Positions 2,553 to 21,507 of a stretch of 32,000 nucleotides of DNA are shown here, one piece after another. Within the stretch, counting starts at the first letter, position 1. Every line of letters starts with the position of its first letter. The stretch comes from an uncultured Nitrosopumilaceae archaeon (GTDB taxonomy: Archaea > Thermoproteota > Nitrososphaeria > Nitrososphaerales > Nitrosopumilaceae), in the NCBI GenBank assembly GCA_964567715.1, contig CAZMNT010000002.1:1-32000 (forward strand), given 5' to 3'. Both the position numbers and the translations under genes were made by a program. The notes under the pieces are model-generated. The model did not search any database, had not been told where the DNA came from, and worked only from the letters and a program-made list of their open reading frames with translations.

Positions 2553-3078
2553 AAAAAGCGTCTGATAGTAGATTTAGAATTTTATCACTGTGGTGTGTTC
2601 AGTAGCATCCACTTTAACTCGCTTCTGAAGCAAGTCCTCTATAACACATTTGTAGAGATTACCAAGATACAGCGACCAAGATTTGGGTGGAGACCATATG
2701 TACTGCGTGCATACTTTGACACACAGCTTCTCATGGCAGAATCAGGGGGAAAAATTGCAACATGACTTTCGCGTCTTCTTCATGGGTCATAAGGGAAGCA
2801 TGGAAGCCAAGTATACAACAAACAAGGGACTCTTGCCAGATGCATTGATTGAAGAAATGCGCCAAGCATTTAGACGAAGTGAGGAATTGCTTGACCTTGA
2901 GATGCAAAACAATGTAACAAAGGAAGAACAAGAAAATAAAACAAAATTCAGTTTGCAACCAGCTCAGATGGTTGTGTCACTTGAACAAGCAGAGACACTA
3001 ATCTCCCAAGGTTGGAGATTTGTTGCAACTTTGCCAAAAGACAAGGCAGTAGTGGAGAAAAATGGTAGCGGACAGTGA
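2553..3078 (+). pseudogene. tyrosine recombinase/integrase, C-terminal catalytic half only, frameshifted
   Basis: Frame 0 (2553-2762) reads ...RPRFGWRPYVLRAYFDTQLLMAESGGKI. Frame 1 continues HDFRVFFMGHKGSMEAKYTT..., which holds the box II LR..F and MGH...Y catalytic-Tyr region. The shift lies in a G5A5 run (2745-2754). An in-frame stop at 2550-2552 means no N-terminal half is present. Confidence 0.6.
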
Positions 3079-3100
3079 CCTGTCTGAAAGGAATGATAAG

Positions 3101-3188
3101 GTGGACCGGGTGGGATTTAAACCCAAGCATCTGAGCTAACGGATCAGCGTTTTTCAGACGCTCGCATTCCATACTATGCGACCCGCAC
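3101..3188 (-). tRNA. tRNA-like element, probably a degenerate tRNA or att remnant (anticodon-loop-like CTGAAAA, GAA)
   Basis: The minus strand shows a D-arm-like hairpin GCAT-AGTATGGA-ATGC, an anticodon-like hairpin AGCGT-CTGAAAA-ACGCT and a T-arm-like TGGG-TTTAAAT-CCCA. The acceptor strands (GTGCGGG vs CCCG-GTC-CAC) pair only with a 3-nt bulge, and a 19-nt extra segment precedes the T arm. It is not a canonical cloverleaf. Confidence 0.35.
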
Positions 3189-3356
3189 AAAATTCTTCAT
3201 ACAGAGCTACCATAAATAGCCTATTTTGAGTCAACAGTTATCCCAAGGTGTAAATCAATGACATAGACAGACATAGATACGTTCATCCAAAACTCCGAAT
3301 TTACTACCTGAAGATACTGTTAATTATGGTTTTCACGTAATAAAAGATCTCTGGAT

Positions 3357-4157
3357 ATGTCTGATATGTCAATGACAATCATGGAACATCTTGAGGAGCT
3401 AAGAAAGCGACTCTTCAGGATGGTAATTGCAGTTGGTGTTGTCTCCTTTTTCATCCTAGGGTTCCATCTTACGCCGTTTGTTTACAATGGAGTTCATCTC
3501 TACTATCCTACTTTCAGTCCGTTTGACAACATAGCAGCTCAAGTCACAGTATCAATGAAGCATAATTTGCTTCCACCAGAAGTACAGCTGATCCAGACAG
3601 CGCCAGGGCAGGCATTTTTTTCTCAGTTCTATATCGCAGTCTTGCTTGGAATTGCGGTGGCAATGCCTGTAATAGTAAGAGAGTTTATAGCATTTCTCTC
3701 ACCTGCCTTTGCCAAAAAAGAGATCCAGATAATAAAATCAATCACTTTACCTGCAGTAGGTCTCTTTGTTGCAGGATGCGTCTTTTCGTACACGGTTGTC
3801 ACTCCATACATGCTTGCATTTCTCTACAAGTATGGCGTGTCTGCAGGTCTGCTGACATTTCTCAATATTGTTGATTTTATCACATTTGTATTACAATTCA
3901 TGCTTGCCTTTGGAATATCATTCCAGCTGCCACTCATCATGTATGCAGTTACTGCATCAGGAATGGTTGACGAAAAGTTTTGGAGGCGCAACATAAAGTG
4001 GGCCGTCATTGCCATAGTCATACTTGGCGCTGCAATAACCCCTGATGGAAGCGGAGTTACAATGTGGTTTGTGGCAGGACCTCTCATAGGACTATATCTA
4101 ATGGGCATGTTCCTCTCAGAGAGAAAGGCACGACAGATTGATACACTTAAATCTTAA
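3357..4157 (+). CDS. tatC: twin-arginine translocase subunit TatC
   Basis: 266-aa polytopic membrane protein with a TatC-type N-terminus (MEHLEELRKRL) and a six-helix hydrophobic pattern. It is followed by tatA. Confidence 0.9.
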   Translation: MSDMSMTIMEHLEELRKRLFRMVIAVGVVSFFILGFHLTPFVYNGVHLYYPTFSPFDNIAAQVTVSMKHNLLPPEVQLIQTAPGQAFFSQFYIAVLLGIAVAMPVIVREFIAFLSPAFAKKEIQIIKSITLPAVGLFVAGCVFSYTVVTPYMLAFLYKYGVSAGLLTFLNIVDFITFVLQFMLAFGISFQLPLIMYAVTASGMVDEKFWRRNIKWAVIAIVILGAAITPDGSGVTMWFVAGPLIGLYLMGMFLSERKARQIDTLKS

Positions 4158-4178
4158 TCTGCCGCATTAATAGCACTC

Positions 4179-4355
4179 ATGGCGTACGAGAATGTAATAA
4201 TTGCTGTCGTTATTATAGGGGTACTGATCTTTGGAGCAAAAAAGATCCCCGAACTTGCTCGAACATTTGGCAAGGCCAAAGGCGAGTATGAGAAAGGCAG
4301 AATCGAAGCCGAAAAAGAGCTAAAGGAATTCAAGGACAAAGAAGATCTCAAGTAA
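4179..4355 (+). CDS. tatA: twin-arginine translocase TatA/E family protein
   Basis: 58-aa ORF MAYENVIIAVVIIGVLIFGAKKIPELARTFGKAKGEYEKG..., with one TM helix, the FGxKK.PEL hinge and an amphipathic helix. It is below the track cutoff. The listed antisense ORF 4154..4351 is its shadow. Confidence 0.8.
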   Translation: MAYENVIIAVVIIGVLIFGAKKIPELARTFGKAKGEYEKGRIEAEKELKEFKDKEDLK

Positions 4356-4391
4356 CGAACGCTTTTTTACCCATTCAAAAATAGATTTTGC

Positions 4392-5483
4392 ATGATCAAA
4401 AGATCAGAGATTCAAAAGATAGCAAGTGGGTACTCTGATCTGTCAATTGGCACACTTGGCAGCCACTCTGCACTTGAAATCATGGACGGCGCAAAGGACG
4501 AAAACTTTAGAACCTGCGTAATCTGCCAGAAGGGAAGAGAGGTTCCCTACAAAAGGTTCTCGCGAATTGCAGACGAGATAATCATAGTAAGCAAGTTCAA
4601 AGAGATGCTCTTACCCAAGATCCAGTCAAAACTTATGGCAGAGAACACCATCATAGTTCCCCACAGGGCCCTTACTGCATATCTTGGATATGACGCGGTA
4701 GAAAACAGGTTCAAGGTTCCGCTCTTTGGAAATCGTGCACTGTTCCAGGCAGAAGAACGCTCGCATAAGAAAAACCAATACTATTTGCTTCAAAAGGCCA
4801 AGATAAGACTGCCCAAGATATTCAAGGACCCAAAAGAGATAGACAGGCCCGTAATTGTAAAGGTGCAAGAAAAGTCTCGCAAGCTAGAGCGTGCCTTTTT
4901 CATGGCAACATCCTATGCAGACTATAAAGACAAGACCGAACAAAAAATAAGACAGGGCCTCATCTCGCGTGATGCACTAAAGATTGCAGGTATTGAGGAA
5001 TTTGTTGTCGGGACCTACTTTAACTTCAACTATTTTCACACACCAATATCCGACGAGGTAGACTTTCTTGGAATAGAAAGAAGGTTGCAGACAAACGTCC
5101 ATGACTTTGTCTCCCTTCCTGCAAAGCAGCAGCTTGAGACAAACATAGAGCTTCAAAACATAGAGGTGGGCCACACCCCTGCCAGCATCCGAGAGTCACT
5201 ACTTGAAAAGGTCATCGAGGCGGGAGACAAGTTTGTGTCAGCAGTCAAAAAAGTGTACCCTCCCGGAATCATCGGTCCGTTCTCCCTTCAAAGTGTGATC
5301 ACAAGAGACCTTGAGATTGTAGTGTATGATGTCTCACTTAGAGTACCAGGCAACCCAATTCTTGCCACTACCAGTCCCTATACAAAGTACAAGTACGGAA
5401 CAACCTTTGGAGTTGGCAGAAGAATTGCAATGGAATTACACAAAGCCCAGCAAGAAGACAAGCTAGAACAGATAGTAACCTAG
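4392..5483 (+). CDS. purP: 5-formaminoimidazole-4-carboxamide ribonucleotide (FAICAR) synthetase PurP, ATP-grasp
   Basis: Strong resemblance to archaeal PurP: IGTLGSHSALEIMDGAKDENFRT..QKGREVPYKRF, IVPHRALTAYLGYDAVEN, FGNR, IRESLL, PPGIIGPFSLQ. Confidence 0.9.
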   Translation: MIKRSEIQKIASGYSDLSIGTLGSHSALEIMDGAKDENFRTCVICQKGREVPYKRFSRIADEIIIVSKFKEMLLPKIQSKLMAENTIIVPHRALTAYLGYDAVENRFKVPLFGNRALFQAEERSHKKNQYYLLQKAKIRLPKIFKDPKEIDRPVIVKVQEKSRKLERAFFMATSYADYKDKTEQKIRQGLISRDALKIAGIEEFVVGTYFNFNYFHTPISDEVDFLGIERRLQTNVHDFVSLPAKQQLETNIELQNIEVGHTPASIRESLLEKVIEAGDKFVSAVKKVYPPGIIGPFSLQSVITRDLEIVVYDVSLRVPGNPILATTSPYTKYKYGTTFGVGRRIAMELHKAQQEDKLEQIVT

Positions 5484-5905
5484 GCCTCCATCTTCTCTTT
5501 TAAGAGATTTTTTCTGACAAGTATTGGCACGTTGTAAAAAGTTGCAAGAGCTATTGCATCAGACGCCCTATAGTTTCGCATCACAACATCGTGTTTTCCG
5601 GTAAAGTAGAGGTTGGCTCGCAACACGCTGCCGCTCTCGTACACCTTTATTCTTACAAGCACAAGCCCGTTTATCTCAGAGAGTTCTTCGATCATGTTGT
5701 ATATGGTAGGAATTGCACCTCTATCGCCATCTATGAAATTTGAGATGTGCCTTGCAACCTCGCCTGAAAAGGCGCGCATGTGAAACTCCTTGTCGTCATC
5801 GGATTTTAGAACAACAAGCCCTTCCACTCCGTATGGATCGACAAAGCCCACATGTGTGATCGTGGTCGTCACATAATCAGAGTCCTGAGGTTCATCTATC
5901 TTCAT
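5480..5905 (-). CDS. bifunctional nuclease family protein (DUF151/BFN)
   Basis: 141 aa. The pattern ...VVLKSDDDKEFHMRAFSGEVARHI...IPTIYNMI...RANLYF...RASDAIALA...PILV is typical of the DUF151 family. Confidence 0.78.
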   Translation of the reverse strand: MKIDEPQDSDYVTTTITHVGFVDPYGVEGLVVLKSDDDKEFHMRAFSGEVARHISNFIDGDRGAIPTIYNMIEELSEINGLVLVRIKVYESGSVLRANLYFTGKHDVVMRNYRASDAIALATFYNVPILVRKNLLKEKMEA

Positions 5906-6064
5906 AATATAGGTCTCTATGGCTCATCATAAGATAAATACTTTGTAAGAATTTCTCCTTTGGGAAAGACAGATAGGATTTAATGTTCCCATTCACCGTT
6001 TTGTTAGTTGGAAAAGCAGAGCATAGTTCCTAGATCACGCAGAGTATTGATAATTGTCTGATTT

Positions 6065-6262
6065 TTGGTCATTGCAGTATCATTTCTTGCGTATGCAAGA
6101 AACAATCAGATCATAGTAACACTGGCTGCCATACCAGCTTTTCAGAACATGGCAGTTGCCACATATGTCATATTGTTTACCTCCTTTGGAGTCATTGGAT
6201 GGTCGATTTACAAGTTTTACAAGGCAGAGATAGAGTTTCCCGACTCGTCAATTGCTCAATGA
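6065..6262 (+). CDS. hypothetical small membrane protein
   Basis: 65-aa ORF with a TTG start directly after an in-frame stop and two hydrophobic segments. No family recognised. Confidence 0.3.
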   Translation: MVIAVSFLAYARNNQIIVTLAAIPAFQNMAVATYVILFTSFGVIGWSIYKFYKAEIEFPDSSIAQ

Positions 6263-6829
6263 TTTCCAACACCATAAACAAGAAGAGGGCAAAGAGAATC
6301 TTTGTCATAAGTACCACAGGATAAGGAATTTCTTTGGTCGGGCCTCAGGTATCATATTTTACAAACCTGAAATTAATGTAACAGATTATGGATTTCCGAC
6401 TCCGCCACACATCGAGCTCTCTCCCTACTGTGATCTACCAAGATACATGCCTATGATTTTGCATTCTTTACAGAGTATTGGAGTTACAAATTGTTCCGCT
6501 AAACTTGGTTCTTCTTGTAATGTCTTTTCTTGTCGGACTGAACTTTTCTCTTGTTGCAACCACCTTTGCGGCAGCCAAGAGCACAGACAAGTTTGGCACG
6601 TTTGGCGCGCTGACAGGACTATGTAGGATGCCCAACATGTGAGGAACTGCGTTTACAATGCTTTTTGGTCGTGGAGCCAGTGCAAGGGGCGTAACATCGT
6701 TTTTGATAAGCTATGAAGCACAGCTGCAAGCCATATTTATAGCTCTTTCAATCCCCATTCTAGTTGCCACTCCATACATCATGGCGAAAAAGATTAGAAA
6801 GGCACAAAACGGTAGCTGTGTATTAGAGC

Positions 6830-7084
6830 CTAAACAGCAGGTTTTGTTACCTGCGGGGTTTTCCAGTCCCCAATGTTGTAGCCTTTCTGCCTCAGATATT
6901 TGAGAGTAAGCTTGTAGACAAGTTCGTCATGATCAGAGGTTTCTAGGATCTCGCTCCATTGCACTACGCCTGTCTGTTCCACCTTCTTTGCAAGTTTCGA
7001 AGAGTTTTTTTCTGCGATTTTTCTGCATTGGTCAAATGTCTTGTCGTTCTTGTAGGCTCGAGTTCTGTCATCACACACATCCAT
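6830..7084 (-). CDS. hypothetical protein
   Basis: 84-aa hydrophilic ORF with protein-like composition, divergent from the methyltransferase gene. No family recognised. Confidence 0.45.
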   Translation of the reverse strand: MDVCDDRTRAYKNDKTFDQCRKIAEKNSSKLAKKVEQTGVVQWSEILETSDHDELVYKLTLKYLRQKGYNIGDWKTPQVTKPAV

Positions 7085-11540: not shown

Positions 11541-14528
11541 ATGAAAGAATTTGGAACCTTAGAGTATGTCTTGGACAATTACTCAAAAAACTGGACCTGG
11601 AAACTTACCGGCTCAAGGGCGGTCTCCATGGTTGCTCGTGTTATACCTCAGGCATGGTATGGAGAGGGTCCCGAAGAAGCAATGGTGCCAGATACAGTAC
11701 AAAACGTTGAGAAGATCAAGTGGATAATGGAGACCTATCCGCTTGAGATAAAGTCCAGAAACATCTGGCAGCGAAAAACAAAGCATATGAAGGCTCCAAA
11801 GAGAAGATGGACGAGAATTGAGAAGCTTCGAAAGGCAAACCCCGGCGAGCAGTTCAGGGGAATGCTACTTAACTTTCAGAGGGAAGGACTAGACTTTTTG
11901 TTAAAATCTTCTGGCAATGCACTGTTAGCTGACGAGATGGGTTTGGGCAAGTGTCTTAAATCAGATTCTCTAATTAGCACTACTAGCGGTCAAATTACAA
12001 TAAAAGAGATTTGGAATAAATCAACAATTATTGAAAAAGATGGGAATGAAGAATGGGGAAGGCTAGAGACTCCCATTACTATACAAACCTTCAATGGAAG
12101 TCAAATCGTACCAAAAAAAGTTACTCGTGTTTTCAGACAAAAAATTGATGAAGACATAACAAAGATTACTTTTTCCGATGGAGCAGTAATAGAATGTACC
12201 AAGCGCCACAAGTTCCTTACCCCTACAGGCTGGAAGATAGCAGGAAAATTAACTATTGACGACAGAGTAGCTATACCCTCAAAGACGTTGCATGAAGGAA
12301 AAAATTCCTTATCTCCAGATGTGAAAGAGTTAATTGGCTGGCAGATTGCAGAAGGATACGAATACTTTGAAGGCAAAAAGTATGTCCATGGCAGATTTTA
12401 CAATTCGGATCCAAAAATTCTTTCTAGAGTGCAACAATCGGCCAACCAACAAGGAATAGAACTCTATCTTTTCTCGTCCTGGGGAACAGCTTTTGTTATT
12501 TCTACAACGAAATTTTACAAATTATTTTCAAAATATAGCTACGAGTGGAGCAAGAAATCTAAAGACAAGTTTGTTCTAAGAGCAATACTGGAGGCACCAT
12601 TAGAAACACAGAAGACATTTGTTCAAGCTGTCTTTGATGCAGAAGGTCATGTAGGTAAAACATACTGTGAGTTAACTACTGCAAATAAATCAATCGCCAT
12701 TGCATTACGGGAGATTCTCCTTCACTTTGGAATCTGTCTTCGCAGTAGAACTGTGGGAAAATTGGCAACAAATGGGACAAGAATACGATGGAAATACTAT
12801 ACATGTACTTTCGGTGGAAATTCGTTAGCCAAATTCCATAACCAGTTCACTCTTCTTACTGAATACAAACAAAAAGCGTTAGAAAAACTTGCATCAAAAA
12901 AACATAACACTAACATCGAAGGCATACCATCACAAAAATTTGTTCAAAAAATTGCAGAAACTGGCATATCATTGCGTTCGCTTAACTTGTACACACCGTA
13001 CAAACATACACAAGGCATGAGCAAACAATTAGCACTTGATGTTTCTTACAAGTTAGAATTACTTCACGAATATGACCTTTCTAAACAGTTGCGTGAATTA
13101 TCTCTAGAATCAATCAACTGGAATACAATCAAATCCATTGAAACCAAACCGTATTCAGGGTATGTGTATGATCTTTCTGTTCCTGAAACACATAACTACA
13201 TCGCAAATGGAATAATCACCCATAACACAGTCCAGACTCTGGCATATCTTGCAACAGAAAAGCAAACATTTCCGGTTCTAATTGTTGCACCGCTTGTTAC
13301 ACTGAGCAACTGGCAGAGAGAAATTCAAAAGTTTCTAAAAAGAAGAAGCAAGAATGGCAGAATTGTCGAAAACCAATATCCATCATCGGTATTGATTCGC
13401 ACTGGCAAGTCACATGAGATTGTAAGGCATGACATTTACATCATAAATTATGACCTGTTATACAAGAGATTCGATGACCTCTCAAAGCTTAACATAAAGA
13501 CGCTTGTATGCGACGAGGTGCAACATCTACGTTCAAAATCAACCAAGAAATATTCTGCAGTAAAGAAACTTGCTGCACTGGAATCTGTCAAGTACAGGAT
13601 TGGGCTTTCGGGGACACCAATTTACAATCGTGGTTCTGAGATATGGCCTATAGTTGACATACTGCGACCCGGACTCCTTGGAAGCTTTGAAGAGTTTTGT
13701 GAATACTTTTGTTATGTAAACGAGAAAGGAAAAGCAATAGTGCTTGAGAACAAGCGTGCAAGCCTAGGCGAGGAATTGCGAAAACATGTAATGCTTAGGC
13801 GCAAAAAGTCAGACGTACTAAAGGAGCTAAAAGAAAAGGTAAGGTACAAGGAGTTTATCGACTCTGATATCAATTATTACTATTCTGAGCTTGACAAGAT
13901 TTGGAAGCGTCTAGAAGAAGAACAAAAGACTGCAACGTCTGCCTTTGACAAGTTCTCATCATACAAGAGAGCGATACAAAGCGAGAGGCAGGCAGCCGGT
14001 GCCGCCAAGCTTCCACATGTCATAGAGTTTGTAAAAAACATCATGGAGATTGAGGAAAGCGTAGTGGTATTCTGCCACCACAAGGCAATCCACGAACTCT
14101 TGCACAAGAGTCTACACGAGTACTCCCCTTCATCCATAATAGGTGGACAGTCAGACAATGAGCGACAGGACAACATTGACAGATTCCAGAACGGTCAGAC
14201 CAAGCTAATGATTGCAGGACTGCGAGCAGGAAACGTCGGAATAAACCTAAGCAGGGCAAAGTATGTCATATTTGCAGAGCTTGACTGGAGCCCTGCAATT
14301 CACAGGCAGGCAGAAGACAGGCTTCACAGGATAGGTCAGAAGAATACTGTATTTGCCTACTACTTGATAGGAAATGGAACATTAGATGATCACGTTGCAA
14401 ACGTTCTGGTTGACAAGAGCTACGAAATTGATGCCATAATGGACGAAAAAGAGGAACCGTTTGAGAACAAGGACAAGGCAGAGCTGATCCTAGCACAGAT
14501 TCATGACAGGCTTAGGACAAAACACTAA
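11541..14528 (+). CDS. SNF2/Rad54-family helicase interrupted by an intein
   Basis: Extein carries SNF2 motifs: DEMGLGK|T (split), LIVAPLVTLSNWQREI, VCDEVQHLRS (DExH), GLSGTPIYNR, and the C-terminal helicase lobe (LMIAGLRAGNVGINL, ELDWSPAIHRQAEDRLHRIGQ). Confidence 0.92.
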   Translation: MKEFGTLEYVLDNYSKNWTWKLTGSRAVSMVARVIPQAWYGEGPEEAMVPDTVQNVEKIKWIMETYPLEIKSRNIWQRKTKHMKAPKRRWTRIEKLRKANPGEQFRGMLLNFQREGLDFLLKSSGNALLADEMGLGKCLKSDSLISTTSGQITIKEIWNKSTIIEKDGNEEWGRLETPITIQTFNGSQIVPKKVTRVFRQKIDEDITKITFSDGAVIECTKRHKFLTPTGWKIAGKLTIDDRVAIPSKTLHEGKNSLSPDVKELIGWQIAEGYEYFEGKKYVHGRFYNSDPKILSRVQQSANQQGIELYLFSSWGTAFVISTTKFYKLFSKYSYEWSKKSKDKFVLRAILEAPLETQKTFVQAVFDAEGHVGKTYCELTTANKSIAIALREILLHFGICLRSRTVGKLATNGTRIRWKYYTCTFGGNSLAKFHNQFTLLTEYKQKALEKLASKKHNTNIEGIPSQKFVQKIAETGISLRSLNLYTPYKHTQGMSKQLALDVSYKLELLHEYDLSKQLRELSLESINWNTIKSIETKPYSGYVYDLSVPETHNYIANGIITHNTVQTLAYLATEKQTFPVLIVAPLVTLSNWQREIQKFLKRRSKNGRIVENQYPSSVLIRTGKSHEIVRHDIYIINYDLLYKRFDDLSKLNIKTLVCDEVQHLRSKSTKKYSAVKKLAALESVKYRIGLSGTPIYNRGSEIWPIVDILRPGLLGSFEEFCEYFCYVNEKGKAIVLENKRASLGEELRKHVMLRRKKSDVLKELKEKVRYKEFIDSDINYYYSELDKIWKRLEEEQKTATSAFDKFSSYKRAIQSERQAAGAAKLPHVIEFVKNIMEIEESVVVFCHHKAIHELLHKSLHEYSPSSIIGGQSDNERQDNIDRFQNGQTKLMIAGLRAGNVGINLSRAKYVIFAELDWSPAIHRQAEDRLHRIGQKNTVFAYYLIGNGTLDDHVANVLVDKSYEIDAIMDEKEEPFENKDKAELILAQIHDRLRTKH
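11952..13226 (+). mobile_element. intein with LAGLIDADG homing-endonuclease domain (425 codons) in SNF2 motif I
   Basis: Begins with Cys directly after GLGK and ends ...GIITHN, followed by Thr that completes GLGKT. Contains TxxH block B (CTKRHKF), LAGLIDADG-like motifs LIGWQIAEGYEY and FVQAVFDAEGHV, and block F/G VYDLSVPETHNYIANGIITHN. Confidence 0.85.
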
Positions 14529-15867: not shown

Positions 15868-16081
15868 CCGTCAAGATCGGTATCACTTGTGAAAACTTGA
15901 CAAGTTATGCGATTCCAACACAACATCAGTAATTTTCTCTTGGCATAAGTGTAAAAAATCTATCTTTGTGCAATTTTTATCAATATTTCAGGCCTTGCAA
16001 TCTTATTGAACATTGTTTAACTCAAAGTATCAAAAAATTATTCTCAAGAAATAAATTGAAAAAATATTCCAGCCAGAGGAA

Positions 16082-16246
16082 ATGGTAAATCAAACAATAA
16101 ACGAACTTGTCAAGATGGCAGACAAAATAGTTATCGACGAGATAAAAGACAAGAAGGTTACTTTGAAGATAAGCTGGTTTGATCTCAAGGGAGCAAAAAA
16201 ATCAAAAAAGTTTTTGCTAAACGAAAAGGAAAAGATCGAGTTTTAG
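16082..16246 (+). CDS. hypothetical small protein
   Basis: 54-aa Lys-rich ORF MVNQTINELVKMADKIVIDEIKDKKVTLKISWFDLKG... in an otherwise ORF-free gap. No family recognised. Confidence 0.25.
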   Translation: MVNQTINELVKMADKIVIDEIKDKKVTLKISWFDLKGAKKSKKFLLNEKEKIEF

Positions 16247-16697
16247 ATCTCAACCTAATATTTTTTTATTTTAGATTCGAGCTAATTATAGGTAAAATCT
16301 ACGGTATATCCAATAATATAAAAATTTTGTTCATAAATCCGTCCGACCACTAATAAACGAAAAAACATCTTTGAGATAGGCGGTCCTTCCTTGTTTGTGA
16401 AAAACAGGAACTCTGGCATACCCACCGTTGCCTGAACGATCCCTACCCACACAGGCAAGGACGCCTAAAGGTATAGAAACGCCCAAAAATTATGGCATTG
16501 TATATTATGTCATGAGCTTCGTGCTTCACAGCAAAAGGCGAGGCCTGTACAGAAAGGCGTTCGTATTGTATACCAACGAGTACATAATATCCGAAGATGA
16601 AGACTGACATCTCAGTATCACAACACCATCCTGAAATGTATACATCTAGTTTAGAACTTTGTTACAGAATGTAATCAAGAAACATAAGTGACCGTCG

Positions 16698-16946
16698 TTG
16701 ATACAAATTATGAAAAAGCACGAGGTCAACAAACTTTTGCTTGAGAAATTTACTTTGGAACAGCTACACGAACTCTGTCGAGAATACAAAAGAGAGATGA
16801 ATCCAATTGATTATAGAGACAGGGTTGTTCTTGGGGAAACAGACTATAACATAATAAAAAAGCGGTTCATTCCATACATCGTTGGCTTTTTTGACCAGTC
16901 AGAGATCATGCAGTATGCCAAAAAGTGTCAGATAAAAATGGACTAA
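16698..16946 (+). CDS. hypothetical protein
   Basis: 82-aa ORF (ATG at 16710 is also possible) with protein-like composition. No family recognised. Confidence 0.4.
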   Translation: MIQIMKKHEVNKLLLEKFTLEQLHELCREYKREMNPIDYRDRVVLGETDYNIIKKRFIPYIVGFFDQSEIMQYAKKCQIKMD

Positions 16947-16950
16947 GAAG

Positions 16951-20199: not shown

Positions 20200-20242
20200 A
20201 GTTTTTCCTCTACGACAGAAACTATGGTTTTCTCTATTATCA

Positions 20243-20470
20243 TTACTTTCGATTTGGTTTTCTTTTAGAGTCGTTTATTGGCAATTTCTTTTTGTCAAAG
20301 TATCTAATTGCAAAACCTGCAAAAAATAAAATCCATCCAAAGATGGTTACGGTTCCCAAGGTACCCTTGTATAGTTGAAAGGCTGGAGAATTTGACATGG
20401 TTGATGAGATTATCCAGTTTGCTATCTGCATGGCAAGCCCTATTATCATTATAACTGTACCACGTTGCAT
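20243..20470 (-). CDS. hypothetical small membrane protein
   Basis: 75 aa with two hydrophobic helices and a basic C-terminus. Confidence 0.45.
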   Translation of the reverse strand: MQRGTVIMIIGLAMQIANWIISSTMSNSPAFQLYKGTLGTVTIFGWILFFAGFAIRYFDKKKLPINDSKRKPNRK

Positions 20471-20598
20471 ACAGTCATAGAATTTGTATTGATCTTAAAG
20501 GTTTGCATTCTGTATACAGTGTACTGATACAATTTATTGAATGACCGATTTGAAAAGCAACCCGGAAGATCAAAATAAAAAGATAGATTCTACAAGAG

Positions 20599-20916
20599 TT
20601 ATCCCTTCGTAGATCTCCATATTATTCCTACAAATGAACCGACGGTAGATGCACTAATCAGTGCAGCCATTTCATTTATGATAGGGTTTGTGTCGGCATT
20701 TGTCTGGGAAGCGCTTATGTATGCTGGAACCAGTACAAAGAGGGTGATAAGACAAGAGACCAGAAGGATTACAACGCCTATTGCAAACTGGGGTTCCTTT
20801 AATCCTCGTGGTTCAGGCTTAATACTCTCAAGTTCTACATATTCTGAATCGTGTCTCACAAGAATGCCCGATTTGATGGATACTTGACCATTTGTAGTGG
20901 TGTAATCTATTATCAT
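20599..20916 (-). CDS. hypothetical membrane protein
   Basis: 105 aa with a soluble N-terminal segment followed by two TM helices. Confidence 0.45.
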   Translation of the reverse strand: MIIDYTTTNGQVSIKSGILVRHDSEYVELESIKPEPRGLKEPQFAIGVVILLVSCLITLFVLVPAYISASQTNADTNPIINEMAALISASTVGSFVGIIWRSTKG

Positions 20917-21145
20917 GATATTTTGAACAGAGATATGGTTAAGACATACTTTTGATTTCGGAATTTCTTGTTAAAAATTTATTATTTTATTTTTAGAAAA
21001 TATGTTTTGTATCCAAGAAAACAAAAGATAGAATTTTTACAATGATGGTTTGTTTTCATTTTTTGTGTTGTTTTGGTTTTTTGAATTTAATTTTTTTACA
21101 AGAAATGTATTGCGATGTTACAAAATCAGGTTTTTTGCAAAAAAA

Positions 21146-21406
21146 TTAGTAAGACTTTACGAGTGTTGTTGTAGATACCAAGTGAGATGTCCTGCGAATC
21201 TTTTGTTCTATTATTTCTCGCAGTGATTCTACTGTTGTAGTCTCTACACTGCACAGTATGTCGTAATGGCCAGTCGTTCTAACGACCTCTTTGATCCCTC
21301 CAATTGAACTCAGATGCTCGATCACGTCACTTTCGTAGCCGGCCTCACAGTTGACCATTACATATGCCGTTTGGAGAGGCAGCATCATCTCTTGCGATGT
21401 ACGCAT
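21146..21406 (-). CDS. stand-alone Lrp/AsnC ligand-binding (RAM) domain protein
   Basis: AYVMVNCEAGYESDVIEHLSSIGGIKEVVRTTGHYDILCSVETTTVESLREII matches the AsnC-type C-terminal domain pattern. No HTH is present. Confidence 0.72.
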   Translation of the reverse strand: MRTSQEMMLPLQTAYVMVNCEAGYESDVIEHLSSIGGIKEVVRTTGHYDILCSVETTTVESLREIIEQKIRRTSHLVSTTTLVKSY

Positions 21407-21507
21407 AAAACTAATTATAGCTGAATTACTTGATTACTATAATTCAGGGTTTTAGCTGATTTATCATAATATTAGCTGATAAGCAAGAGAGATATCGGGC
21501 GTTAATT

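Follow-up and report, generated by a model that had tools for sequence, protein, structure and literature searches.

Novikova et al. (2016, PMC4760082) count SNF2/HepA proteins among the 15 bacterial hosts in which inteins are found most often, and P-loops are favoured as sites of insertion. A spread of inteins from P-loop to P-loop between unrelated proteins has been reported as well (PMC10710043). The TliVMA and PhoVMA inteins interrupt V-ATPase subunit A in its P-loop, at the VMA-b site (PMC8966425). The VMA-b family includes active and degenerate endonucleases as well as deletion-derived mini-inteins, and the homing-cycle model describes a succession of invasion, endonuclease decay, deletion to a mini-intein, and loss or re-invasion (PMC8966425). 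An intein in an SNF2-family host is known from Deinococcus radiodurans; its splicing was demonstrated experimentally according to the citing passage in PMC11219805, and the title of Brace et al. (2010), cited in PMC4031507, describes it as a class 3 intein with a block F branched intermediate. Our literature search found no paper on inteins in Nitrosotalea, and for Nitrosopumilus none that looked relevant by title or abstract. The element described here is a 425-residue insert in the Walker A motif (motif I, the P-loop) of an SNF2-family helicase gene, which we assign with high confidence to the class-1 inteins with a two-motif LAGLIDADG endonuclease. The gene is located on contig CAZMNT010000002.1 (assembly GCA_964567715.1, uncultured Nitrosopumilaceae archaeon), of which positions 1 to 32,000 were analysed (referred to as the window). 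The host is a Nitrosotalea-like soil ammonia-oxidising archaeon.

The insert covers exactly 1,275 nt (425 codons) between K137 and the threonine of the SNF2 motif I, DEMGLGK/T (slashes mark the splice junctions; Table 1). In the translation, precursor residues 131 to 145 read DEMGLGK/CLKSDSLI and residues 556 to 575 NGIITHN/TVQTLAYLATEKQ, with LLADEMGLGK/CLKSDSLISTTSGQ... and ...THNYIANGIITHN/TVQTLAYLATEKQ as the precursor junctions. A preliminary description, made from the sequence alone, had placed the insert in the 995-amino-acid open reading frame (ORF) at the same coordinates, which proved exact in the ORF list and in the translation. As it had also claimed, deletion of C138 to N562 restores motif I, leaving a protein of 570 amino acids with DEMGLGKT intact. 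Its central proposal, a full-size LAGLIDADG intein in the Walker A motif of an SNF2 protein, is supported jointly by profile matches, the fold model, and intein-free orthologues. An exact-protein look-up of the 995-amino-acid precursor found no record.

Table 1. Coordinates of the intein-interrupted SNF2 gene and its parts in the window (intein residues are counted from Cys1)
Feature	Position	Strand	Remarks
SNF2-family ATPase precursor gene, intein-interrupted	11541..14528	+	995 aa plus stop; uninterrupted ORF; SNF2-rel_dom and Helicase_C matches
N-extein, residues 1-137	11541..11951	+	last residues DEMGLGK, the beginning of Walker A/motif I
GLGK at the end of the N-extein	11940-11951	+	
Intein, 425 aa, precursor residues C138-N562	11952..13226	+	Pfam and NCBIfam matches; no insert at 21 orthologous loci
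N-terminal half of the HINT splicing domain, intein residues 1-113	11952..12290	+	TIGR01445 on residues 1-90; beta-rich, pLDDT 81-97
Cys1	11952-11954	+	
Block B, T83-K-R-H86	12198-12209	+	T83 and H86 nearly invariant in alignment A1
LAGLIDADG homing-endonuclease domain (putative), intein residues 121-335	12312..12956	+	LAGLIDADG_3 match; AF2 fold; segment missing from mini-intein alleles
LAGLIDADG motif 1, LIGWQIAEG, intein residues 127-135	12330..12356	+	putative catalytic Glu134
Altered predicted DNA-binding beta-hairpins, intein residues 169-183 and 258-293	12456-12500 and 12723-12830	+	window copy alone
LAGLIDADG motif 2, FVQAVFDAEG, intein residues 223-232	12618..12647	+	putative catalytic Glu231
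Linker or accessory segment, intein residues 336-386	12957..13109	+	between endonuclease and C-terminal HINT half; low-confidence 319-360, then two helices
C-terminal half of the HINT domain, intein residues 387-425	13110..13226	+	TIGR01443 on residues 404-425; pLDDT 86-95
Block F, VYDLSV..THNYIANG	13164-13211	+	
Block G, ITHN	13215-13226	+	
Thr+1	13227-13229	+	completes Walker A GLGK/T
C-extein, 433 aa plus stop	13227..14528	+	remainder of the ATPase core, with motif VI QAEDRLHRIGQ; aligns colinearly to 1Z63 residues 50-466; match to Helicase_C

In the host protein, the match to the Pfam domain SNF2-rel_dom (E = 1.8e-37) extends over the insert, from precursor residue 112 to 781, with Helicase_C (E = 1.9e-16) behind it. 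The extein-only protein, which the preliminary description had proposed to align to archaeal SNF2 proteins, is colinear with the SNF2 core of Sulfolobus solfataricus (1Z63, E = 5e-47) over residues 118 to 534. This alignment takes in GLGKT, DEVQ, and QAEDRLHRIGQ of the extein; across the splice junction, LADDMGLGKTLQT of the extein is aligned to LADEMGLGKTVQT of 1Z63. A search of a large protein collection with the extein returned hundreds of thaumarchaeal orthologues (source names Nitrosotalea, Thaumarchaeota, and Nitrosopumilaceae), many of which comprise 570 to 572 amino acids and have no intein domain; the best of them is 95% identical. Among the closest orthologues, those of the Nitrosotalea clade, almost every one keeps the N-terminus MKEFGTLEYVLD.

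The insert alone was recognized by the Pfam profile Intein_splicing (E = 2.7e-25, above the curated cut-off) and by the NCBIfam profiles intein_Nterm (TIGR01445; 39.3 bits, cut-off 24.5; intein residues 1 to 90) and intein_Cterm (TIGR01443; 40.3 bits, cut-off 15.6; residues 404 to 425). The splicing residues named in the preliminary description (Cys1, TxxH, the terminal His-Asn, and Thr+1) can all be read in the sequence; the C-terminus is VYDLSVPETHNYIANGIITHN/T, with H424-N425 as the last two intein residues and Thr at +1. Together with the two LAGLIDADG-type motifs and the profile scores, this lies far beyond chance. V405, Y406, D407, P411, H414, N415, H424, and N425 are nearly invariant when allelic and more distant relatives are aligned (alignment A1). 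The Deinococcus radiodurans Snf2 intein shares the SNF2-family host but is of class 3, whereas the window intein begins with Cys1 and its block F, VYDLSVPETHNY, contains no Cys, as befits class 1.

A structural model of the insert was built with AlphaFold2 (AF2) on alignment A1. Its mean predicted local distance difference test score (pLDDT) was 76.9; the HINT halves reached 81 to 97 and the middle domain 70 to 90, while the stretch 319 to 360 was poorly predicted. The best Foldseek match in the PDB was the TliVMA intein (7qss, E = 1.5e-27, template modelling score 0.66), and TliVMA and PhoVMA (7qss, 7qsu, 7qst) also ranked at the top of the PDB sequence search. With these inteins the window element has in common the P-loop site, the layout of HINT domain, LAGLIDADG endonuclease, and accessory segment, and a similar size (429 amino acids). 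They differ in the host protein, V-type ATPase subunit A, in an identity of only about 22%, and in the catalytic residue, which is Asp in TliVMA and Glu in the window intein. The whole intein further matched PI-PfuI (1dq3), PhoVMA (7qst), PI-TkoII (2cw7), and PI-SceI. PI-PfuI, PI-TkoII, and PI-SceI share its fold and its architecture of two domains (Foldseek E = 1e-22 to 1e-10), but reside in ribonucleotide reductase, DNA polymerase, and site a of the yeast V-ATPase, respectively, and are 9% to 19% identical. The segment of residues 336 to 386 is present in allelic mini-inteins of 221 to 223 amino acids and gone from those of 163 to 166 amino acids; it may be a counterpart of the accessory domain of VMA-b inteins (PMC8966425).

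According to the mechanism expected for such residues, the gene would be translated as a precursor of 995 amino acids, the P-loop of which is split by 425 residues and which would be ATPase-dead before splicing. Cys1 would perform an N-S acyl shift, the resulting thioester would be attacked by the hydroxyl group of Thr+1, and Asn425 would cyclise with the help of His424, releasing the intein. A final O-N shift would form a normal peptide bond, giving the 570-amino-acid helicase with an intact GLGKT. The ratio of nonsynonymous to synonymous substitution rates (dN/dS) of the exteins is 0.01 to 0.03 despite the split P-loop, which indicates that the host gene is functional and, indirectly, that the intein would have to splice; splicing of the window's own copy is predicted. 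The opposite reading, in which the segment is a non-splicing insertion domain kept in the mature helicase or the gene is a pseudogene, has a negligible probability: all intein signature residues are present, the ORF is intact, the closest intein-free Nitrosotalea orthologues (95% to 96% identical) lack the segment precisely at K/T, and 425 residues within GxGK/T are incompatible with a working P-loop, yet the exteins show the low dN/dS given above. The existence of intein-free alleles in effect refutes this reading.

The middle part of the insert matched the Pfam profile LAGLIDADG_3 (E = 8.5e-9; 36 bits, cut-off 22.5), hence both the Hint and the LAGLIDADG profile searches suggested in the preliminary description scored above their cut-offs. 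Its statement that the insert contains two LAGLIDADG-like motifs and is not a mini-intein agrees with the sequence, the profile, and the fold. Both motifs end in an acidic residue followed by Gly, which is common to the full-length alleles except for a degenerate one (L006, see below); Glu134 is kept in all of them, L006 included. In the AF2 model, DSSP assigned the succession alpha-beta-beta-alpha-beta-beta-alpha twice. The motif helices (residues 122 to 134 and 217 to 231) end at E134 and E231, each is followed by beta-hairpins, and the endonuclease part was matched to I-DmoI by Foldseek. On the opposite strand, the intein coding sequence contains a 91-amino-acid ORF with a TTG start (window 12101-12376, minus strand), which shows no sign of being a gene and most probably occurs by chance in this AT-rich DNA.

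The preliminary description had also called the insert an intact selfish element. This stands as far as frame and catalytic residues are concerned: compared to the other full-length alleles, the window endonuclease has no frameshifts, stops, or indels, and retains both catalytic Glu and both motif Gly. Whether it is intact in function is less certain, and several properties of this copy speak against an unimpaired enzyme. Private substitutions, defined as changes at positions where at least 90% of the other alleles agree, amount to 18 in the endonuclease domain, compared to 1 to 8 in other Nitrosotalea alleles; elsewhere in the window intein, there are two in the C-terminal part and six in the N-terminal splicing part. 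Basic or aromatic residues are lost in both predicted beta-hairpins (R175S, K176S, W262C, and R280W), where the changes found only in the window are PKPRKDKT to YLFSSWGT, WLRIRIAKKY to CLRSRTVGKL, and RRKYY to RWKYY. With 32 Lys and Arg residues, the endonuclease has the lowest count among the full-length alleles (34 to 40 in the others). Its dN/dS is 0.11 to 0.20 in pairs with the window and 0.07 to 0.14 in other pairs apart from those with L006, and relative-rate tests with the Nitrosotenuis intein P0122 as the outgroup counted 16 to 24 unique changes in the window endonuclease against 10 to 19, a trend with p = 0.07 to 0.45. A compensated frameshift was considered as the origin of YLFSSWGT and rejected, because the codon alignment revealed scattered base substitutions and no frame slip.

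These properties would be explained if the intein still splices while its endonuclease is already inactive or decaying, a post-invasion state with vertical inheritance only, on the way to a mini-intein. We regard this as a plausible reading, although it falls short of being the probable one. Apart from the concentration of private substitutions in the endonuclease, its low number of basic residues, and the somewhat higher dN/dS, it can draw on relatives that met this fate (the catalytic Glu lost in L006, the endonuclease deleted at 10 loci) and on the precedent of the PhoVMA intein, whose endonuclease is structurally intact yet inactive (PMC8966425). The undamaged frame, E134, E231, and the motif glycines argue against decay, as do a dN/dS well below 1, relative-rate tests without significance, and the confidence with which the fold is predicted. 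On balance, the assessment tips slightly towards an active endonuclease. In that case, the free intein would cut intein-free alleles at the joined K/T codons, and repair would copy the intein into them (homing). Support for such cleavage and homing comes from the population level, namely the patchy distribution and the L001/L005 mosaic described below and the dN/dS of 0.07 to 0.20.

The distribution of alleles was followed in an ortholog scan with one genome per species, which returned 41 loci, 37 of them complete enough to be classified. Intein-free alleles at GLGK/T, for which the preliminary description had suggested a search, are numerous in close relatives: 21 of the 37 loci have GLGKT or GLGKS without an insert, and 91 protein clusters are also uninterrupted. 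The intein-free joined site in L019, L020 or L021 reads ...GAYGARATGGGNYTNGGNAAR/ACNGTNCARACN.... The other 16 loci and the window carry an insert, always at MGLGK/C...HN/T; of the 16, six have a full-length intein (424 to 428 amino acids) and ten a mini-intein (163 to 223 amino acids), and among the protein clusters, 16 further insert sizes within 163 to 274 amino acids were found. The allelic SNF2 inteins of Nitrosotalea and Nitrosotenuis (P0021, P0090, P0095, P0101, P0122; Ca. Nitrosotalea sp. TS, NZ_RCMB01000007.1, which is L003) share the gene and the K/T site with the window intein, and have a matching architecture of 424 to 425 amino acids as well as the splicing and LAGLIDADG motifs. 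They differ from it in sequence (68% to 75% amino acid and 69% to 76% nucleotide identity) and have fewer private changes in the endonuclease. Allelic copies are present in public Nitrosotalea MAGs (metagenome-assembled genomes), and one copy was labelled by the Joint Genome Institute (JGI) as 'intein/homing endonuclease/superfamily II DNA or RNA helicase'.

The deletion end points of the mini-inteins vary. In one group, the first LAGLIDADG helix is retained as far as AWQ and the sequence continues with AETGISL, a second group resumes about 45 residues before the C-terminus, and others stop still earlier. Because the end points differ, the mini-inteins are not of a single origin but go back to several independent deletions of the endonuclease. 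The degenerate full-length intein of L006 has AEENEY instead of AEGYEY and FDAGG instead of FDAEG, so that one catalytic Glu is lost. Its gene (JAGWHF010000002.1, Thaumarchaeota MAG REEA70, nt 3001-7065) encodes an SNF2 protein of 1,355 amino acids with two inteins. The second insert (357 amino acids, Intein_splicing E = 1.4e-14) is located in helicase motif VI, QAEDR/CIKQ...SVHN/CHRIGQ, and is followed by Cys instead of the usual Leu at +1. In the intein-free locus L022 (DATFCV010000003.1, Nitrosotalea MAG), GLGKS followed by VMTL was found in place of GLGKT; the +1 residue and the target sequence of the homing site are thus both altered.

In a neighbour-joining tree of the exteins, the intein states are interleaved. 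L019 and L020, both without an intein, are placed as sister to the window allele, the full-length L005 is sister to L021 (no intein), and the full-length L004 and L008 group with L024 (no intein). The dN/dS of the endonuclease domain among full-length alleles is 0.07 to 0.20, and purifying selection acts on both extein and intein. The series of empty, full, endonuclease-dead, and mini alleles is the pattern expected of the homing cycle. Two loci, L001 (ENA ERZ27257062, k141_1666886) and L005 (JAGWFS010000002.1), form a mosaic: their nucleotide identity is 82% in the extein (dS, the synonymous substitution rate, 2.6) and 70% in the N-terminal splicing part (dS saturated, 1.9), but 94% in the endonuclease together with the C-terminal splicing part (dS about 0.2). 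Parts of the intein therefore move between lineages, and this exchange was recent and horizontal.

For the window intein itself, the preliminary description had noted by eye a higher A/T content than in the flanking extein and had taken this as a sign of recent horizontal arrival. The difference in base composition was reproduced by calculation. The GC content is 36.3% in the intein and 43.6% in the extein, and the GC content at third codon positions (GC3) is 30.6% and 47.5%, respectively. The 22 other large ORFs of the window have a mean GC content of 0.430 (standard deviation 0.021) and a mean GC3 of 0.438 (standard deviation 0.049, minimum 0.361), hence the GC3 of the intein is below that of every one of them. 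By part, the window intein has GC3 values of 0.28, 0.30, and 0.36, compared to 0.475 in the host gene. The only other parts of the window that are as AT-rich (GC 0.30 to 0.37) are three stretches without an ORF of at least 120 amino acids, at about 1500-2700, 15900-16950, and 20200-21500; they are probably intergenic or contain small genes.

The conclusion drawn from this composition stood only in part. A comparatively late arrival from an AT-richer relative fits the data: all intein parts are far below the GC3 of the host gene, whereas the N-terminal splicing part of the degenerate L006 (0.584) has come to the level of its host gene (0.577), and the nearest exteins are free of inteins. Against it stands a group of results from the comparison of alleles. 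The GC3 of the intein is lower than that of the extein in 17 of 17 alleles, including old mini-inteins with a deleted endonuclease, so low GC characterises the family as a whole. Among the sampled inteins, the closest are 70% to 78% identical in nucleotide sequence to that of the window, compared to 81% to 87% for the exteins, and no intein protein closer than 73% identity was found among 5.8 billion clusters. Furthermore, no convincing co-conversion tract was detected at the window junction (60- to 240-nt bins, 29 alleles): L008 has a nucleotide identity of 0.90 in the first 60 nt, but the intein-free L024 reaches 0.87 as well, and the bin is small. Dating of the arrival by dS failed, since most pairs have reached saturation at synonymous sites (dS is undefined or exceeds 1). 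With a family-wide bias, no donor, and no date, a recent arrival of the window intein is weakly supported, and a precise loss of the intein from relatives of the L019/L020 type is equally possible. In all copies, the lowest GC3 is that of the endonuclease part (0.24 to 0.31). Near the junction, the Leu codon two codons upstream of the insertion (window 11943-11945, compared with loci L001 to L036) is TTG or TTA in 13 of 17 intein-bearing alleles of the Nitrosotalea clade and CTN in 9 of 13 intein-free ones (Fisher p = 0.025, uncorrected for phylogeny); this association could reflect co-conversion or a target preference of the endonuclease.

An exhaustive HMMER search with the window intein, covering 1.84 billion representatives, gave 3,350 hits, and 12 of the nearest ones from outside the Thaumarchaeota were inspected. 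All 12 are long helicases of the superfamily 2 (SF2)/SNF2 type, bacterial and viral-type, with an intein at G-x-GK/C...HN/T; in three of them, the junctions read LADDMGLGK/C...HN/T. The identity to the window is 27% to 46% over the full length of the intein, equal to or above the 21% to 31% of the exteins. The presence of an intein at the same site in 12 of 12 relatives places the window element in a broad family of helicase motif I inteins that crosses the domains of life. These bacterial and viral-type helicase inteins (for example P0139, P0140, P0146, P0154, and P0157) have related endonuclease motifs, AWQ[IL]AEG.. and F[DE]AE[GS], but are often larger (433 to 514 amino acids), and many end in CHN instead of THN; the extein of P0157 has no detectable match. 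Apparent same-site inteins in the bacterial loci L044 to L060 were discarded, as the translation reads plain GLGKT and the tblastn matches, which started within the C-terminal region of the intein, were alignment overhang.

One further residue deserves mention. Cys81 (window 12192-12194, in IECTKRH), two residues before the block B Thr, is present in 17 of 17 aligned thaumarchaeal alleles, and TliVMA has no counterpart of it. Cys81 is a possible disulfide partner of Cys1. Such a pairing, together with the placement in a catalytic P-loop, the sort of location at which inteins have been argued to act as a 'panic button' (PMC4760082), would suit an intein co-opted as a conditional splicing switch, for example a redox- or stress-dependent one, that holds the SNF2 ATPase inactive and is retained for this purpose. 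We consider this very unlikely, as 21 of 37 loci have no intein at all, the distribution on the extein tree is patchy, and an endonuclease under purifying selection with horizontally moving parts is typical of a selfish element. A composite reading combines module-wise homing in Nitrosotalea, in which endonuclease and C-terminal part are swapped apart from the N-terminal half as in L001 and L005, with cross-domain spread via the GK/T codons of SF2 Walker A motifs and redox-conditional splicing through Cys81 in ammonia oxidisers of acid soils; taken as a whole, it is improbable.

The genes surrounding the SNF2 gene in the window encode TFB, TatC, a PurP-like protein, CorA, a DnaJ-TPR protein, EF-2, and proteins of menaquinone metabolism, i.e., the neighbourhood is that of an ordinary archaeal chromosome; CorA is found upstream in a related contig as well. 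The sole tRNA gene of the window, tRNA-Phe (GAA), is located at 3100-3188 on the minus strand (about 85 nt, 31.5 bits, Rfam threshold 29). It exceeds the standard tRNA length and may contain an archaeal intron.

For annotation, the locus is to be described as one intein-containing SNF2 helicase with a mature product of 570 amino acids, and not as a 995-amino-acid 'helicase' or as fragments. The window intein belongs to a family that has been recorded at this helicase site before and is unexceptional within it, and on its own it adds little to the biology, as inteins in the P-loops of replication and repair ATPases, including SNF2/HepA, are well documented. If active, its endonuclease would add to the rare-cutting LAGLIDADG enzymes a new one whose target is defined. 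The modest value of the locus lies in the population series, which comprises empty, full, endonuclease-dead, and variously deleted alleles as well as a recent mosaic at one site in one genus-level clade, and also includes a relative (L006) in which this helicase is interrupted by another intein at motif VI. In this clade of uncultivated or hard-to-grow ammonia-oxidising archaea, the locus is usable as a marker of gene flow and as a natural series for the origin of mini-inteins.

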